Assembly: GCA_944323635.1 (NCBI GenBank)
Contig: CALUTH010000001.1
Location: forward strand, 1-39,869
DNA from: Candidatus Gastranaerophilales bacterium
GTDB lineage: Bacteria; Cyanobacteriota; Vampirovibrionia; Gastranaerophilales; Gastranaerophilaceae
Length of the DNA stretch: 39,869 bases
Reading direction: 5' to 3'
In this document: in pieces, positions 16,478 through 39,869 of the stretch
Layout: every line of letters starts with the position of its first letter
How positions within the stretch are numbered: position 1 is the stretch's first letter
Notes under the pieces: model-generated
Databases searched by the model: none
What the model was told of the DNA's origin: nothing
Seen by the model: only the letters and a program-made list of their open reading frames with translations
Translations under genes and position numbers: made by a program

Positions 16478-18069
16478 TGACAGAAAAAAACAACTATCAT
16501 TCACAATCTTCTCTTATGAGAAGTCTTCTCAAACGTAAAAATCCCGATGAGATGATGGCGGATGCCGAAAAAGGCGGGTTGGAAAAGACTTTAGGTGTTT
16601 GGGATTTGATTATTCTCGGCGTGGGTGCGATTATCGGCTCCGGTATTTTTGCAATTGTCGGTGTCGCTGCTGCTACTCCGGGAACCGGTGCAGGGCCGGC
16701 TCTTATGGTATCAATGGTTATTGCTGCTATTGCTTGCGTGTTTTCAGCGCTTTGCTACTCAGAATTTTCATCAATGATACCGGTTGCGGGCGGAGCATAT
16801 ATTTATACCTTTGCTACACTTGGTGAATTTGCGGCGTGGATGGTAGGCTGGATTTTGATGCTTGAGTACGCTATAGGATATATTGCGGTTGCGTGCGCGT
16901 GGTCAAATCACTTTATGCAGTTTTTAAGCGGATTTAAAGCTGTTTTACCTGCGTGTATTACTAATCCGCCGATTTGGCTTGTGTCTGATTTCCGTTCGGC
17001 AGGGGAATATTTAACTTCGCAGGGTATCAGTCCGGAGAGTGTAATTCCGCATTTTGCGGGTATTCCGATATGTATTAATTTACCGGCATTTGTTATTGTT
17101 GCTATTATTACAATGATTCTTATAAAGGGAACAAAGGATTCTACCAAAATGGCTGCCATAATGGTTGTCGTTAAACTTGGCGTGATTGCTCTGTTTGTAA
17201 TAGCCGGAGCTTTTTATGTTAAGCCTGAAAACTGGGTTCCGTTTGCGCCAAATGGGCTTCAGGGACTGTTTATGGGCGCATTTATAATTTTCTTTGCGTA
17301 TATCGGGTTTGATGCGCTTGCCACGGCTGCTGAAGAGTGCAAAAATCCTCAGAAAGATTTACCGATAGGGATTATAGGGTCACTCCTCGTAACGACTGTT
17401 GTTTATGTGCTTGTTGCCCTTGTTTTGACAGGGGTGATGAAAACGAATGGTGCACCTGTTCCGCAGGAGTTTTTAAAAGCGCCTATGGCATATATTATGG
17501 AAATGGTCGGGCAAAACTGGGTTGCAGGATTAATTTCTGTCGGTTCGCTTGCAGGCGTAGCGTGCGTTTTGCTGGTTTTGCAGCTCGCTGCAACGCGTAT
17601 TCTTTACGCAATGAGCCGTGATAATTTCCTGCCGAGTATATTTCAGAAACTGCATCCCAAGTTTAATACTCCGCATATTCTTACGTGGGTTGTCGGTATA
17701 ATCTGTATGGTAGGAACACTTACGCTGGATTTGAATGTTGCTTCGGAGTTGTGTAATTTTGGTACATTTACATCATTTATAATTGTTTGTGTTGCTGTTC
17801 TTATATTAAGAAAAATTGATCCGGACAGACCAAGACCTTTCAAGGTTCCGTTCTCTCCGTGGTTCCCGCTTGCCGGAATAGTTTTATGTACAGGTTTGAT
17901 GATATTTTCAATGGTTATCAAACACTCGCTGTCCGCACTTCTTTTCCCTGTATGGGTAATAGTCGGTATTGCTATTTACGCCTGCTACGGGTATAAGAAA
18001 AACAGACTTGTTGAACAAAATAATACACTGGAAGAAATAGAAAAAGATGAACATAAAATCACTACTTAA
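16477..18069 (+). CDS. APC-superfamily amino-acid permease (CAT-like), paralogue 1
   Basis: 530-aa polytopic protein. Contains the blocks WDLIILGVGAIIGSGIF, MLEYAIG, FFAYIGFDA, ELCNFGTFTSFII and DPDRPRPFKVPFSP. Its ATG overlaps the glyQ stop (TAATG). Confidence 0.9.
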   Translation: MTEKNNYHSQSSLMRSLLKRKNPDEMMADAEKGGLEKTLGVWDLIILGVGAIIGSGIFAIVGVAAATPGTGAGPALMVSMVIAAIACVFSALCYSEFSSMIPVAGGAYIYTFATLGEFAAWMVGWILMLEYAIGYIAVACAWSNHFMQFLSGFKAVLPACITNPPIWLVSDFRSAGEYLTSQGISPESVIPHFAGIPICINLPAFVIVAIITMILIKGTKDSTKMAAIMVVVKLGVIALFVIAGAFYVKPENWVPFAPNGLQGLFMGAFIIFFAYIGFDALATAAEECKNPQKDLPIGIIGSLLVTTVVYVLVALVLTGVMKTNGAPVPQEFLKAPMAYIMEMVGQNWVAGLISVGSLAGVACVLLVLQLAATRILYAMSRDNFLPSIFQKLHPKFNTPHILTWVVGIICMVGTLTLDLNVASELCNFGTFTSFIIVCVAVLILRKIDPDRPRPFKVPFSPWFPLAGIVLCTGLMIFSMVIKHSLSALLFPVWVIVGIAIYACYGYKKNRLVEQNNTLEEIEKDEHKITT

Positions 18070-19579
18070 CAATCTGCTCAAGAAAAAAAGCACTGATGAG
18101 TTGATTGAAGCGACAAAAAAGTCTGAATTAAAAAAGACATTAAATATTTTTGACTTAATAATAATCGGTATTGGCGCGGTTGTCGGAACGGGTATATTTA
18201 CTATTATCGGTACGGCAATTGTAGGAACACCGGATTCGGCGGGTGCGGGACCTGCAATAATTCTTTCTATGGTTCTTGCGGCTATTGCCTGCGTATTCAC
18301 TGCACTCTGTTATTCAGAAATCGCCTCAATGATACCGGTAGCTGGCAGCGCTTATACTTATACATATGCTACAATGGGCGAGTTTATGGCGTGGATGGTC
18401 GGCTGGATTTTGATGCTTGAGTACGCTATCGGAAATATTACTGTTGCGAGCGCTTGGACAGGGTATCTTGTGCAGTTATTGAGAGGGTTTAAGCAGTATT
18501 TACCTGATTTTGTTGTACATTTCCCGTTGTGGCTCAGAAATGACTATATTTCAATGTTAAGGATGTGCAAGATTTACGGATGGGATATTCATGATAAAGT
18601 TCCTCATTTGTTCGGGGTAATCCCTGTTTCTGTTAATCTCCCTTCTGTGTTTATAGTTCTTGCGCTTACTCTGCTTTTGATTAAAGGTGTTAAAGAATCT
18701 ACGCGTGTTGCGGGTATTATGGTCGGCTTAAACTTATTTATGATAATAAGTTTTGTCCTTGTAGGCGCTTTTTATGTCAAGCCTGAAAACTGGACACCGT
18801 TTATGACTAACGGGTTTGAAGGTGTGTTTATGGGGGCTTTTCTGATTTTCTTTGCGTATATCGGGTTTGACGCTATTTCGACTACTGCGGAGGAAACCGA
18901 AAACCCGCAGAGAGATTTGCCGATTGCGATACTCGGAACACTTGTTATATGTACAATTTTATATGTGTGTGTGGCGCTTGTGCTTACGGGAATTGTGCCG
19001 ATTTCTCAGATTGATACCGGCGCGCCGATTGCGCACGCAATGAGTTTTATTAAAAAAGACTGGTTTGCAGGATTTATTTCTGTGGGTGCGCTTGCGGCAC
19101 TGACTTCGGTACTTTTGATTTATCAGCTGGGAACTACCAGAATTCTTTATGCAATGAGCCGCGACAGATTTTTACCGAAGGGGTGGAGATTGATACATAA
19201 AAAATTCAAAACTCCTTATGTTATGACCTGGTTTGCCGGTATTGCTGTTATTGTATTTTCACTGTTTATGGATTTGAGGATTTCTGCCGAGTTATGTAAC
19301 TTCGGTACGTTTACATCATTTATAATTATCTGTATTGCAGTTTTGATTCTTAGAAAAACGGATCCCGACAGAAAAAGACCGTTCAAGGTTCCGTTTTCCC
19401 CGCTCTTTCCGATACTTGGAATTGTTGTGTGCGGCGGGTTGATGGTGTATTCGCTTAAATCGCTGCATGAGTCATCAATATATTTCCCGCTCTGGCTGCT
19501 TGCGGGGGTTCTGATATACGTATTTTACGGATACAGACAAAAACGTATTGAGGACGCACAGCGCAACCGTAACAATTAA
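18047..19579 (+). CDS. APC-superfamily amino-acid permease (CAT-like), paralogue 2
   Basis: 510 aa with the same conserved blocks as the upstream gene (tandem paralogue). It overlaps the upstream gene by 23 nt. Confidence 0.9.
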   Translation: MNIKSLLNNLLKKKSTDELIEATKKSELKKTLNIFDLIIIGIGAVVGTGIFTIIGTAIVGTPDSAGAGPAIILSMVLAAIACVFTALCYSEIASMIPVAGSAYTYTYATMGEFMAWMVGWILMLEYAIGNITVASAWTGYLVQLLRGFKQYLPDFVVHFPLWLRNDYISMLRMCKIYGWDIHDKVPHLFGVIPVSVNLPSVFIVLALTLLLIKGVKESTRVAGIMVGLNLFMIISFVLVGAFYVKPENWTPFMTNGFEGVFMGAFLIFFAYIGFDAISTTAEETENPQRDLPIAILGTLVICTILYVCVALVLTGIVPISQIDTGAPIAHAMSFIKKDWFAGFISVGALAALTSVLLIYQLGTTRILYAMSRDRFLPKGWRLIHKKFKTPYVMTWFAGIAVIVFSLFMDLRISAELCNFGTFTSFIIICIAVLILRKTDPDRKRPFKVPFSPLFPILGIVVCGGLMVYSLKSLHESSIYFPLWLLAGVLIYVFYGYRQKRIEDAQRNRNN

Positions 19580-26737: not shown

Positions 26738-27541
26738 ATGATTTTGAGTACTAAAAAAGTTCAGGAAAAAAATATAGATGAGACTTTAGAACAGTGGCTT
26801 GTGAGTTATCAGCAAAGCAGTAATGATAATGAACGTGCTAAATTAAAAACGCTGATTGTTACTGCAATGATGTCAAAAGTTAGAAAAATTGCGAAGACAA
26901 TCGCCCGACGGGATTACGACCCTGTCGATGATTTGGTACAGGCGGGCGCAATAGGGCTTATTAAGGCGATTGATAATTTTAAACCCGAACTGAGCAAGAG
27001 TTTCAGAATCTATGCAGGTTATTTAATTATCGGTGAAATGCGCCACTATATCAGAGATAAGATGTCTTTAATTCGTGTCCCGCGTGAAATTCAGGAATTG
27101 GCATATCGTATTAACAGTTTTGTAACGGATGTTTCCGATGATTATATTGACAATTTGACCCAGCAGGATATTGCGGAGGCGCTCAATGTTCCCGTAAAAA
27201 AAGTCGGTTATGCCATGGAAATGGACAGAAGAAAGAAAACAGTTTCTCTCGACCATATTTATGATAAACATAATCAAAATATTCCGTTCGAGGAAATTAT
27301 CGGGACTGATGACTACAAGTTTACGGCAGAAACGTACGACCAGAAAATAATTTTGAACGAAGTAATCGAAAAACTGCCGGAGGATTTGAAAGAACTTATT
27401 TATCTATATTATCACGAAGATTTGTCGCAAAAACAAATAGCTGAGCGGCTAAATCTTTCTCCGATGATGGTTTCCAGAAAACTCAAAAAAGCTTTTGATA
27501 TACTTTATTCATTAATTACTACAGAAAAAAGGAAAGTGTAA
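26738..27541 (+). CDS. RNA polymerase sigma factor, group 3 (SigB/SigF-like)
   Basis: Region 2 DDLVQAGAIGLIKAIDNFKPE...GYLIIGEMRHYIRD, region 4 HTH LSQKQIAERLNLSPMMVSRKLKKA. There is no region 1.1. Confidence 0.9.
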   Translation: MILSTKKVQEKNIDETLEQWLVSYQQSSNDNERAKLKTLIVTAMMSKVRKIAKTIARRDYDPVDDLVQAGAIGLIKAIDNFKPELSKSFRIYAGYLIIGEMRHYIRDKMSLIRVPREIQELAYRINSFVTDVSDDYIDNLTQQDIAEALNVPVKKVGYAMEMDRRKKTVSLDHIYDKHNQNIPFEEIIGTDDYKFTAETYDQKIILNEVIEKLPEDLKELIYLYYHEDLSQKQIAERLNLSPMMVSRKLKKAFDILYSLITTEKRKV

Positions 27542-28497
27542 TGATTAATTCCGATATACCGGTTGTATTATTTGTAGCCGTTGTCGGGTTATGTTTCGGC
27601 AGTTTTTATAATGTTGTAATCTTAAGAGGTTTAAGCGGCGAAAGTATTGCTTTCCCCGGTTCTAAGTGCCCCAAGTGCAACACTCCGCTAAAATGGTGGC
27701 ATAATATTCCTGTTTTATCTTATTTGATGCTCGGCGGCAAGTGCGCTTTCTGTAAGTGTAAAATCAGTGTTCAATATCCGCTTGTGGAGTTGATTACAAT
27801 GCTTTTGTTTATTGCCGCTTATCTCAAGTGGGGATTAACTGTTAAAACATTATTTGCACTCCTGTTTTTTTCACTATTTTTGATAACTACCGTTACGGAT
27901 ATTTTAGAAAGAGTAATTTTAACCCGTCACGCATATATTCTTGGCGGAGCGGGGGGTGTATACGCAATTCTTGCGATGTTTTATCCGCAATTAAACGGTG
28001 AAGTTTATCTCGGGCAAAATCCTCTCCTTGTTTCTATACTGGGGATTGCCGCGGGCGTGTGTGTTATGGAACTTCTTGCACGAAGCGGGTATTTGATTGC
28101 CGGAACACGCGCTTTTGGAGAAGGTGATTCTTATATTGCAGGTGCTCTGGGGGCGATATTCGGATGGAAATATATTTTAATTGTTCTCGCTGCAGGGTTT
28201 GTTGTACAGTTTGTTTTTTCTCTGCCGTTGTTTTTGATAAATACGTTTAAGTCCGGCGAAAAACTTACTGTAATTGAATTTTTATTGTTTATGATACTTG
28301 CTGCGGTTATGTGGTTTTTAGGTAACAGGGTTGAACAGGTTATTTATATAAGCGGGCTTGTTTTGCTTGCGCTTATTGCGCTGCATTTAATAAGAAATAT
28401 TGTCCGCGATATTAAAACCCCGTCAGGATGTACGTATTTGCCGTATGTTCCCGCGATGATACTGGCGGCATTTGCCGGCATGTTCCTCTGGTGGTGA
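27541..28497 (+). CDS. pilD: Prepilin (type IV leader) peptidase, A24 family
   Basis: N-terminal CPKCNTPL...CAFCKCKI with YPLVEL, and a polytopic core with GEGDSYIAGALGAIFGW. Its ATG overlaps the sigma-factor stop. Confidence 0.9.
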   Translation: MINSDIPVVLFVAVVGLCFGSFYNVVILRGLSGESIAFPGSKCPKCNTPLKWWHNIPVLSYLMLGGKCAFCKCKISVQYPLVELITMLLFIAAYLKWGLTVKTLFALLFFSLFLITTVTDILERVILTRHAYILGGAGGVYAILAMFYPQLNGEVYLGQNPLLVSILGIAAGVCVMELLARSGYLIAGTRAFGEGDSYIAGALGAIFGWKYILIVLAAGFVVQFVFSLPLFLINTFKSGEKLTVIEFLLFMILAAVMWFLGNRVEQVIYISGLVLLALIALHLIRNIVRDIKTPSGCTYLPYVPAMILAAFAGMFLWW

Positions 28498-28500
28498 TGC

Positions 28501-28742
28501 TGCCGCCTCGCGCTGTCTTGCTCGGCGGCGTTAAACGAGTCTACGGGCAAAGGCTCTCGTTTTGCCCTCCGCTCTCTGCCTCCTCGCGCTGTCTTGCTCG
28601 GCGGCGTTAAACGAGTCTACGGGCAAAGGCTCTCGCTTTGCCCTCCGCTCTCTGCCTCCTCGCGCTGTCTTGCTCGGCGGCGTTAAACGAGTCTACGGGC
28701 AAAGGCTCTCGCTTTGCCCTCCGCTCTCTGCCTCCTCGCGCT
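28501..28742. repeat. 76-bp GC-rich tandem repeat, 3 full copies plus a 14-bp partial copy
   Basis: Units start at 28501, 28577, 28653 and (partial) 28729. Copies 2 and 3 are identical, and copy 1 differs at 28505 and 28560. Each unit contains the hairpin gggcaaag-N7-ctttgccc. Confidence 0.97.
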
Positions 28743-28785
28743 CGAACCCGGGGCAATGCTGCGCATTGCGGGGTTCTCGTCCCAT

Positions 28786-28807
28786 AAAAAAAGACGCGTT
28801 TGCGTCT
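28786..28807 (-). terminator. Rho-independent terminator of tRNA-Gly
   Basis: On the - strand, the stem agacgc/gcgtct with loop aaac is followed by T7. Confidence 0.8.
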
Positions 28808-28816
28808 CAATTAATT

Positions 28817-28888
28817 AGCGGGAGACGGGACTCGAACCCGCGGCATTTTGCTTGGGAAGCAAACATTCTACCACTGAATTACTCCCGC
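28817..28888 (-). tRNA. tRNA-Gly (anticodon CCC)
   Basis: The reverse complement GCGGGAG-TA-ATTC-AGTGGTA-GAAT-G-TTTGC-TTCCCAA-GCAAA-ATGCC-GCGGG-TTCGAGT-CCCGT-CTCCCGC-T folds as a canonical cloverleaf. No CCA is encoded. Confidence 0.93.
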
Positions 28889-29015
28889 AGTGTATACTCT
28901 AATTCTATCACAAAAAACTAAAAATAAAACAGCATAGAATTGTTAGTTTATAAGTTGTGAATTAGATATGATTTTTACAATTGACTTCTAAACAGTGAAA
29001 GGTATTTTTAACCGC

Positions 29016-30827: not shown

Positions 30828-31142
30828 TTATGCAACCTGTAATGTATAACCAAGTTCTTTTAATAACTTACCGATTGTATCTAATCTTGGCACACGTTCA
30901 CCTTTAAACATTTCGTATAATGCCGCTCTTGTTATACCTGTTTTTTGTGAAAATTCACTTATGCTCATACGTGCTTTTATTACTTGTTCCAAAGATTGAA
31001 AGAACAAATCATAATCACCATCTGTAATAAATTCTTGTATTGCAGCATTTAAATACATTTTTTGATACTCTTCATCCATAAGAACATTATTCAGATGTTC
31101 TTCATGTGTAATATTTTCAGATTTTATTTTATCAATATCCAT
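30828..31142 (-). CDS. higA: HigA-type antitoxin (addiction module antidote protein, XRE-HTH)
   Basis: ...MSISEFSQKTGITRAALYEMFKGERVPRLDTIGKLLKELGYTLQV matches the TIGR02684-type antidote pattern. The ATG at 31142 lies 1 nt after the toxin stop. The longer ORF-track start at 31220 overlaps the toxin gene. Confidence 0.85.
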   Translation of the reverse strand: MDIDKIKSENITHEEHLNNVLMDEEYQKMYLNAAIQEFITDGDYDLFFQSLEQVIKARMSISEFSQKTGITRAALYEMFKGERVPRLDTIGKLLKELGYTLQVA

Positions 31143-31143
31143 T

Positions 31144-31461
31144 TTATTTATACCTTTCTTTAAATTCTTGTAAATATGTCTTTGCCAGATTGATATCTTT
31201 CGATTGCTTTGATTTATCACCTGCAGATAATAAAACTATTATTACATCATCAAATTCATAAGCATATATTCTATAACCTGCACCTTCTGTGAATTTTATC
31301 TCTGTTAAATTATCAAATTTACGATATTTACCTAAATTTCCAAGTTTTATACGGTCAAGCCTTCTATCAACAATCAATCTAACACTTTTGTCTAAGGAGT
31401 TATACCACTCAAGATAAGGACACTTTCCATTGATTGTTTTGTAATAGATTATTTCCTTCAT
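31144..31461 (-). CDS. higB: HigB/RelE-family toxin (addiction module killer protein)
   Basis: 105 aa. INGKCPYLEWYNSLDKSVRLIVDRRLDRIKLGNLGKYRKF...GYRIYAYEFDDVIIVLLSAGDKSKQSKDI follows the TIGR02683 killer-protein pattern. Confidence 0.85.
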   Translation of the reverse strand: MKEIIYYKTINGKCPYLEWYNSLDKSVRLIVDRRLDRIKLGNLGKYRKFDNLTEIKFTEGAGYRIYAYEFDDVIIVLLSAGDKSKQSKDINLAKTYLQEFKERYK

Positions 31462-39275: not shown

Positions 39276-39303
39276 GTTGACAAAAGAATAAACCAAACTA
39301 CAT

Positions 39304-39375
39304 TCCTCAGTAGCTCAATGGCGGAGCATTCGACTGTTAATCGAAGGGTTGCTGGTTCGAGTCCAGCCTGGGGAG
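39304..39375 (+). tRNA. tRNA-Asn (anticodon GTT)
   Basis: TCCTCAG-TA-GCTC-AATGGCG-GAGC-A-TTCGA-CTGTTAA-TCGAA-GGGTT-GCTGG-TTCGAGT-CCAGC-CTGGGGA-G is a canonical cloverleaf. No CCA is encoded. Confidence 0.93.
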
Positions 39376-39386
39376 TTTTTTATTGC

Positions 39387-39424: not shown

Positions 39425-39607
39425 AGGAAAATCACTGTTTGAGAACCAGCCGACCCAAAGGGGTTTTGGTGAGAGTCCAGCGGATTTGCGGACGGACGAC
39501 GCAGCAGATATGGTTGAACAGACATTGCAGGAATTTGATTTTGGGGAACTAATAGGGCTGTGTTTCAAATATATCTTGATTTTTTTAGTCGGAATTTGCT
39601 AAAAATA

Positions 39608-39752
39608 GAATTCCTGAACTGGCAAAAAAGTCCGATTACTGTCCGTCAATGTCTAAAACAAGACAGTGTCTCAAAACCTTAAATGGCGGGAATTTAGACA
39701 CAGTTCAGGAATTTTGGGACAGTTCAGGAATTTTGGGACAGGACAGTGTTAA
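39608..39752. repeat. Iteron-like cluster of direct and inverted repeats
   Basis: A perfect 19-bp tandem acagttcaggaattttggg occurs twice (39700-39718 and 39719-39737). There is an inverted copy gaattcctgaactgg at 39608-39622. gacagtgt recurs at 39662 and 39742, and a palindrome tgtct-N6-agaca is at 39650-39665. Confidence 0.85.
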
Positions 39753-39869
39753 AAATTTTTTCAAAATTTTAAATTTAGGTGGAAATTTATTCTAATTTAC
39801 TCGGAAGTACAAAAAGAATATGTAAATAAGGTTATAATTTTAAATTTTGTTGTGTGCAACTCAATAGAA

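Follow-up and report, generated by a model that had tools for sequence, protein, structure and literature searches.

Repeats at the tyrT locus of Escherichia coli have been known since the 1970s. The RtT RNA has until now been regarded as an enterobacterial oddity, with an origin and a role that are unclear. RttR is reportedly processed from the tyrT transcript and possibly tied to the stress or stringent response, although its role is uncertain (bioRxiv 10.1101/2024.07.17.603846). In our reading, the annotated rttR/tpr repeats are copies of the 3' half of tRNA-Tyr in which 67 nt have been inserted into the T-loop and a further 10 nt are complementary to the 3' end of the tRNA. Here, we analyzed a 39,869-nt stretch of Candidatus Gastranaerophilales (assembly GCA_944323635.1, contig CALUTH010000001.1, positions 1 to 39,869; referred to as the window), in which a GC-rich array with a 76-bp period lies between the prepilin peptidase gene pilD and a tRNA-Gly(CCC) gene. 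With a probability of roughly 0.6, we consider this array to be a recent, lineage-specific tandem amplification of a single module, M, that belongs to a previously undescribed family of tRNA-trailer repeats of Candidatus Gastranaerophilales.

The E. coli K-12 locus (L059, 1286000-1288200) was inspected directly. Downstream of tyrV, a 178-bp unit is repeated 3.0 times, with each unit ending in the last 19 nt of tRNA-Tyr, and the Rfam RtT model (RF00391) gave four matches of 133-138 bits, the fourth copy being located between tyrT and tyrV. Each E. coli unit consists, in order, of GGGGAAGGAT (the complement of ATCCTTCCCC), GAGAAGCTTCGACC, AAGGTTCGA (positions 50-58 of tRNA-Tyr), a 67-nt GC-rich module and AATCCTTCCCCCACCACCA.

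The original prediction, which was made from the letters of the window, had placed a GC-rich 76-bp tandem array directly after the pilD stop codon, and this was borne out by Tandem Repeats Finder (28500-28742, period 76, 3.2 copies, 98% matches, no indels, score 472) and by a direct-repeat search that returned three copies in register. The array has a GC content of 63.8%, compared to 0.38 as a fraction for the whole window, and it starts 2 nt past the pilD TGA and ends 75 nt from the 3' end of tRNA-Gly(CCC). All units are read hereafter on the strand of the neighboring tRNA (tRNA-sense), which is the - strand in the window. In the phase of the family, the array comprises a tRNA-proximal M copy (28665-28740), a middle copy (28589-28664), a distal copy (28513-28588) and, at the distal array end, the first 13 nt of a truncated fourth copy (CGCGAGGCGGCAG, 28500-28512). 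The proximal and middle copies are identical to each other, as had been predicted, and each scored 101 bits with the covariance model of M; the distal copy scored 96.8 bits. The two substitutions originally assigned to one copy turned out to be divided between two units, with 28560 C>T being the only difference in the distal copy and 28505 T>G located in the truncated one.

Short-read assemblers mishandle arrays of this type, and among the sister loci there are scaffolds with N gaps and unitigs that stop inside arrays, all of which would be compatible with an assembly artefact. Against this, the same junction of pilD and array was present in two other samples: assemblies with an identical PilD (L001) and with a PilD of 97% identity (L007) extend 38-44 nt into the same array before they end. 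The array was considered real because two independent assemblies enter it after near-identical PilD sequences. Additionally, its first copy as numbered along the + strand has private substitutions, and at least five other species have homologous arrays, which leaves an artefact scarcely credible. The copy number in the window was derived from short reads and is hence not secure.

Relatives of the array were collected through orthologues of PilD and of the phosphatase encoded next to the tRNA, which together provided about 640 kb of scattered loci. In these loci, a profile search and later a covariance model identified about 24 copies of M. In tRNA-sense, M is a 76-nt module that runs from CGCGAGG to CAAGACAG, and covariance-model matches in relatives span 66-93 nt. 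Behind the orthologous tRNA-Gly(CCC), the tandem period is 149-162 nt and not 76 (L012, L010, L037-L039), with three units in L012. A full unit consists of the last 14-18 nt of the tRNA (T3), a trailer or terminator, a stretch complementary to T3 (anti-T3), a hairpin that contains a copy of the T-stem of the same tRNA, M, and T3 again. In degenerate form, such a unit repeats the 3' half of the neighboring tRNA, with M located within the T-loop (position 57-60) and T3 covering approximately positions 59-73. For the Gly units, the order is T3 (14 nt, TCCCGTCTCCCGCT), trailer with terminator, GGGAnGA, the hairpin GAACCC...GGGTTC, GAG, M and T3. Here M is located exactly inside the T-loop of the partial tRNA copy, since GGGTTCGAG, which is formed by the 3' arm of the hairpin and GAG, equals positions 51-59 of tRNA-Gly (the 5' half of the T-stem and the T-loop), and T3 begins at position 60.

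The same layout was detected behind tRNA-Val(GAC) in L008 (2 units), L012 and L037, and behind tRNA-His(GUG) in L044-L046 (2 units). One to three units are found behind the Gly, Val and His tRNAs. All tRNA-derived parts of the unit change to suit the local tRNA, with the 3' arm of the hairpin copying the T-stem and the GTTCGA loop. Val units have the arms GAACTTG and CAAGTTC, the T3 AGCCTTGTATCGCCCA and a 10-nt anti-T3, GGCGATACAA, which pairs with TTGTATCGCC. His units have the arms GAACCC and GGGTTC, the T3 ATCCCATCGGGCGCCCCA and the anti-T3 GATGGAGAT. Full units measure 149-184 bp and contain no gene. Decay was seen in the T3 copies farthest from the tRNA (L010, L044 His). A check for T3 duplication found none at tRNA-Asn or tRNA-Glu, and none at the tRNA-His of the window, L037 and L043.

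Integrases that target tRNA genes classically leave direct repeats of a tRNA 3' end that start in the T-loop. The units could accordingly be read as site-specific integration scars (attL/attR remnants) in which M is a former attP arm; the decayed distal T3 copies would then be displaced original ends, and the tandem units resemble the tandem accretion of elements, with an M-like copy also present in a phage contig. We consider this improbable. Only 105-170 bp separate the repeats and no integrase is present, while the duplication extends past T3 into the native trailer or terminator, which argues for a host duplication and not for foreign entry. M also separates the T-stem copy from T3 and leaves no intact core site, no integrase lies near the phage copy, and the E. 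coli RtT repeats have the same layout with no known element there.

Compared to these full units, the window array is a truncated derivative of the tRNA-trailer repeat family in which M alone has been amplified. In tRNA-sense, tRNA-Gly(CCC) (28817-28888) is followed by its trailer with an intrinsic terminator (28784-28816; GAGACGC aaac GCGTCTC and then T7), by GGGACGA, the hairpin GAACCC...GGGTTC and GAG (28741-28783, all on the - strand), by the three M copies and by the 13 nt of the fourth, past which comes the pilD stop in antisense. GGGACGA can pair with the first nucleotides of T3, to which it is complementary, and orthologous pieces of the whole 28741-28783 segment were found in L010, L012, L038 and L044. 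The interrupted hairpin at 28744-28776 that had been predicted to cap the array was confirmed. The suggested link to tRNA-Gly also held, with the repeat family present in the 3' flank of the orthologous tRNA-Gly(CCC) in L010, L012, L037-L040 and L044. No T3 copy was found within 900 nt downstream of the window tRNA-Gly, and the window unit is therefore unable to form the closing stem. The three M copies are almost identical, which points to a recent amplification.

Direct-repeat, profile and covariance-model searches identified no further M copies in the window. Outside the tRNA loci, solo copies of M were located in L002, L003 (two), L004, L012 (2751-2826), L016 (11846-11921) and L035, a Mu-like phage contig in which an M-like copy lies between the capsid and terminase operons. 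The last of these came from viral pattern scans, two of the three giving coding or chance matches and the third this one true M-like copy. A single metagenome scan with a hairpin-based pattern returned chance matches only, in a DEAD-box helicase motif. When a 24-mer of the unit was searched against 185,579 representative genomes, one species was matched, the Candidatus Gastranaerophilales metagenome-assembled genome BRZ_DT__bin31 (bin31), which has three dispersed single copies and a fourth, diverged one, all of them intergenic.

Other identities for the array were not supported by database searches. The open reading frames over it had been called artefacts, and indeed they shift frame with each unit, and neither they nor the six translations of the unit had any relative at E<=10 among 5.8 billion proteins. 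BLAST against phage and plasmid collections gave no match to the array, and Rfam, at gathering and E-value thresholds, placed no family on it. A CRISPR array was ruled out, as the copies are arranged head to tail without spacers. The observation that the unit is as long as a tRNA led nowhere: the cloverleaf search with ARAGORN and the Rfam tRNA model identified only tRNA-Gly, tRNA-His and tRNA-Asn in the window and nothing in 28500-28783, and the length varies among relatives, as given above.

The expectation of a modular structured element was corroborated by the covariance model and the copies in relatives. M forms a three-helix rod, P1-P3-P2, in which 90% of cells are paired as compared to 78% in shuffled alignments (0 of 500 shuffles reached this value; 13 distinct short variants), and two-sided changes were observed at 8 of 17 pairs, a level reached by 4 of 500 shuffles. 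P3 is 100% and P2 99% paired, and shifting the 3' partner by 1-3 columns lowers the paired fraction to 29-44%. P3 occurs as GAG/CTC, GGG/CCC and GGC/GCC, and P2, which in the window is GGGCAAAG/CTTTGCCC, has three compensatory positions. In the Val, His, L044-Gly and phage copies, P2 has been swapped for hairpins of other lengths with the flanks kept; these copies were outside model building and were still matched at E values of 1e-8 to 1e-14, with the matches confined to a single strand. In tRNA-sense, purines predominate in the internal loops (YGGA opposite GKARW), and P1 of one variant type has tandem G-A/A-G. One variant type of M has direct repeats at its ends and the other has ends that pair as the P1 stem, with no terminal inverted repeats. 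Minimum-free-energy folds of complete Gly, Val and His units show a closing stem of anti-T3 and T3, a T-mimic hairpin and the M domain, and the fold of E. coli RtT likewise yielded a closing stem, a T-mimic hairpin and an M-type domain. The two hairpins drawn by hand in the original prediction fared differently, as gggcaaag/ctttgccc is real and conserved, whereas cgctgtc/ggcggcg spans the unit junction and is found in the window array only.

The strand and function proposed for the array had been a structured + strand RNA read out of pilD, with the CCUCC linkers serving as anti-Shine-Dalgarno sequences. No terminator separates the pilD stop from the array, and the + strand would accordingly be transcribed by read-through from pilD; this strand folds with z = -2.0, and the 28560 change makes a G:U pair on this strand and an A-C mismatch in helix P2 on the - strand. 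This G:U asymmetry cannot decide the strand, however, because there is one variant each way, the L010 variant favoring the - strand as that of the window favors the + strand. Moreover, all comparisons gave the - strand as the more stable one, the tRNA-sense strand was more stable in every full unit (for Val, -54.3 vs -41.8 kcal/mol), the covariance model matched this strand only, and six of seven solo copies are co-oriented with their neighboring genes in tRNA-sense. The CCUCC/GGAGG motif is variable, being CCGCC in L010 and GCTCGC in L038, the tRNA-Val copies and the bin31 copies, and most family members have no CCUCC. With the motif not conserved, the basis of the anti-Shine-Dalgarno idea is gone, as is that of a second proposal, a CsrA-sponge-like - strand RNA with repeated GGA/GGAGG. 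For the latter, the - strand does offer one GGAGG per unit and a conserved YGGA, but the conserved GGA of M lies in an internal loop, outside the hairpin loops that CsrA binds. Csr family models gave no match on the array even at E<=10, and the tRNA-Gly terminator precedes the array on the - strand. Read-out from pilD is also at odds with the private nature of the junction hairpin and with a family tied to tRNAs and not to pilD; we consider it highly improbable, and a CsrA sponge hardly conceivable.

The genes around pilD (27541-28497, + strand; 318 aa, PF01478 and PF06750, TGA at 28495-28497), which is convergent with the tRNA and a neighbor only, are in agreement with this. In every species examined the downstream neighbor of pilD varies, being RNase H, speD, rplF or others, with no repeat. 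In L012 and L037, about 8.4 kb separates pilD from the tRNA-Gly array, including RNase H, holA, holB, tRNA-Val, a helicase and bioG. Because the downstream neighbor varies by species, the array is taken as the site of a rearrangement junction that has brought it next to pilD by accident. The distal ends of the arrays are likewise cut variously: 13 nt into M in the window, about 35 nt in L012, 18 nt in L037 and by a transposon in L040. Upstream, the order of a PNP_UDP_1-family gene, agmatinase, ligA, a hypothetical gene, a sigma factor and pilD is kept, and the 28497/28498 junction was a recurrent synteny breakpoint in comparisons with L008, L010, L012, L016, L020 and L025. The inserted element of L040 (888-4044) cuts M behind tRNA-Gly at ...CTGTAGA|; its genes (Tn7/Tn5053-like) specify a TniB/AAA_22-like ATPase and a protein that combines rve and Mu-transpos_C domains, and repeats of the TTTTGCAC type are close to the end of the element.

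Altogether, we favor the following scenario for amplification of M from the tRNA-trailer repeat family. The 3' end of a tRNA would have duplicated, and M would have entered the T-loop of the spare copy. Units may then have expanded, contracted and homogenized by unequal crossing-over or replication slippage. In the window lineage, a rearrangement would have fused the array to the pilD stop with loss of the distal T3, after which the copy number of M alone presumably rose to 3.2 or more. If the analogy with RtT holds, terminator read-through may produce complete units as tRNA trailers, and the T3/anti-T3 stem may supply a tRNA-like end for processing. For the window array itself, the most likely situation is that it has no dedicated function beyond that of a GC-rich hairpin block between the convergent transcription of pilD and tRNA-Gly.

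Several observations weigh against this scenario. Transcription, processing and any function of the units are putative, and the Gly and His units have an intrinsic terminator between the tRNA and each unit, so that transcription in tRNA-sense requires read-through. Direct G:U evidence for the strand consists of one variant each way, and compensatory A-T/G-C changes suit DNA hairpins as well as RNA. To create the M-to-M junction, T3, terminator and hairpin must have been lost precisely between microhomologies of 2 nt (AG), and unequal crossing-over of full units alone would not yield this. Furthermore, the same truncated-copy design is seen at three or four tRNAs and in E. coli, which makes independent decay hard to credit and hints at a directed, unnamed mechanism. 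Solo copies off tRNAs, including the one in a phage contig, need a route of dispersal. As the M-to-M junction, the recurrent design and the solo copies are unexplained, a directed-insertion alternative is kept alive. In a broader version, the layout would be the product of a directed, unnamed process that operates in phyla as distant as Enterobacteria (RtT) and Melainabacteria, with the M-only array of the window as its by-product. We judge both unlikely. Behind such a process there could be a mobile or recombination module that targets T-loops, or else small RNAs with tRNA-like processing that have been selected as a family.

The directed-insertion alternative describes M as a small, non-autonomous mobile or recombination module that inserts in hairpin loops, chiefly those of spare T-loops, and beside itself, so that the tRNA units, the window array and the solo copies would all derive from repeated insertions and not from duplication and slippage. 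The ends of M are constant, with the T-stem/T-loop copy on the left and T3 on the right at three tRNAs, and each window M abuts the next at exactly those ends. The solo copies are in unrelated intergenic sites and a Mu-like phage contig, and in the bin31 copies M has complementary flanks (CTGAA...TTCAG), as though it were in a hairpin loop. Units at tRNA-His in the L044 species and their absence from the window, L037 and L043 would also fit, as would the end types of M, which vary between species at the same tRNA and suggest exchange between copies. On the other hand, no transposase or integrase was seen beside any copy (in L035, the neighbors are the capsid and terminase operons), there are no terminal inverted repeats, and apart from 1-2 nt that are ambiguous, no target-site duplication is evident. 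On their left side, the solo copies are flanked by TTCGAG, CTGAAG, ATGTAG and GACAG, which share no fixed motif, contrary to a tetranucleotide target of the IS200/IS605 type, a pair of filled and empty but otherwise identical sites was not found, and a 76-bp double-stranded circle is below the size for recombinase synapsis. A mobile M was thus regarded as a doubtful explanation, and amplification from tRNA-trailer repeats as the preferred one.

Three further candidates were considered for M and its units. An integron attC site, suggested by GTTTAAC, was rejected on account of a single box with no inverted pair. A miniature derivative of IS200/IS605 was rejected for want of a common left-flank tetranucleotide and of a left-end/right-end hairpin pair. 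It also appeared unlikely that M and T3 are the scaffold and the guide of a guide RNA for a tRNA-homing Tn7-like transposon, because anti-T3 sequesters T3, the units are outside any transposon, and RtT has the same design without such a system.

Other repeats were observed in the window and in the related loci. In the window, the trailer of tRNA-Asn (39303-39376) carries at 39441-39481 the sequence GAGAACCAGC, which equals GAGAAC plus the complement of its T-stem, and TGGTGAGAGTCCAGC, a degenerate copy of the tRNA-Asn T-arm, lies 16 nt beyond it; these motifs may represent the tRNA-linked unit design without M, i.e., an 'empty' unit. Between 230 and 370 nt downstream of tRNA-Asn (39588-39741, with the window edge at 39869), there are clusters of direct and inverted motifs, namely GGAATTTTGGGACAGTTCA x2.8, GTCGGAATTT and an inverted pair (39609-39633 and 39708-39732), and the orthologous tRNA-Asn of L044 is followed by similar clusters of GACAGTTCA and GTCGGAA. 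These clusters look like the transposase-binding repeats of a transposon end (possibly Tn7-like), the genes of which would be located beyond the window. G-rich tandem motifs were found near solo M copies in L002 (693-733), L004 (7728-7771) and L035 (about 2440-2470), consisting of GAGGGGGGTAAAT x3.2, GGGGTAAA x5.5 and GGGGTAAGGGGGTAAAT, and in bin31 a second common module of 58 nt (CCCCTCGCCCCACGCAC...GGTTAAACT) is found beside M in both orientations. Intergenic repeats appear to be mosaics in these genomes. Elsewhere in the window, three blocks of 71-74% identity about 1.55 kb apart (16687-19452) represent a tandem pair of diverged paralogous genes, and two small overlapping - strand open reading frames (130 and 105 aa; 30828-31461) directly after tRNA-His have a toxin-antitoxin-like layout. 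In L016, a Gp49/HTH_3 pair adjoins the solo M copy.

With this layout present behind three tRNAs in a distant, uncultured gut lineage, and with one shared, covarying module that also occurs as solo copies, tRNA-trailer repeats of such a design may well be widespread among bacteria in general. The family provides a comparative handle on how such repeats form and on whether functional tRNA-like RNAs result. Additionally, assemblies of Gastranaerophilales genomes break at the arrays, which also indicate where rearrangement hot spots lie, and the window array could be utilized as a strain-typing marker through variable copy number.

Among known systems, tRNA att-site scars share with the sister loci, not with the window, the direct repeats of the tRNA 3' end that begin in the T-loop and are sometimes tandem; they differ in that no integrase or cargo is found here, that the duplicated part includes the native trailer, and that M splits the would-be core site. 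Like REP/BIME, ERIC and Correia/NEMIS elements, M is short, relatively GC-rich, hairpin-forming and intergenic, with many copies per genome, often in 3' untranslated or convergent sites, in mosaics and at rearrangement hot spots, and it has the dispersed intergenic copies that characterize REP/BIME and miniature elements. In contrast to these, M lacks both overall palindromy and terminal inverted repeats, the overlap at its junctions is just 1-2 nt and ambiguous, it resides mainly at a precise position in tRNA 3'-half copies, and no link to RAYT or another transposase was seen in the loci sampled.

In its sequence, RtT is distinct from the family described here. The Rfam RtT model (gathering threshold 45 bits) had no match in window 28400-28900 or in L012 18700-19300, even at E<=10, while the E. 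coli control was matched; the covariance model of M had no match in E. coli. Homology between M and the RtT module was unsupported (z<=2, no cross-match), and the whole-unit alignment scores against E. coli RtT (z of 4.7 for His and 2.9 for Val) came largely from the tRNA-derived parts. The two also differ in that one M module serves three tRNAs here and occurs as solo copies and in a phage, in that Gly and His units contain an intrinsic terminator, and in that the window copy has no T3 and repeats M alone, which makes a closing stem impossible. Tandem units that each end in a tRNA 3' copy, as in RtT, were seen in L010, L012, L037-L039, L008 and L044 and are absent from the window. In layout, however, RtT and the sister units agree part for part. 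Both are located downstream of a tRNA on its strand and in tandem, with a tRNA 3'-end copy that starts in the T-loop closing each unit, and both contain a stretch complementary to this copy (GGGGAAGGAT/ATCCTTCCCC in E. coli, GGCGATACAA/TTGTATCGCC for Val), a GAGAA motif ahead of a copy of the T-stem 5' half with GTTCGA, and a GC-rich module of about 70 nt in the T-loop. The Rfam consensus structure of RtT has a closing stem, as do the folded Gly, Val and His units. Judged from these sequence comparisons, the Gastranaerophilales family is an architectural analogue of RtT and not the same family by sequence.

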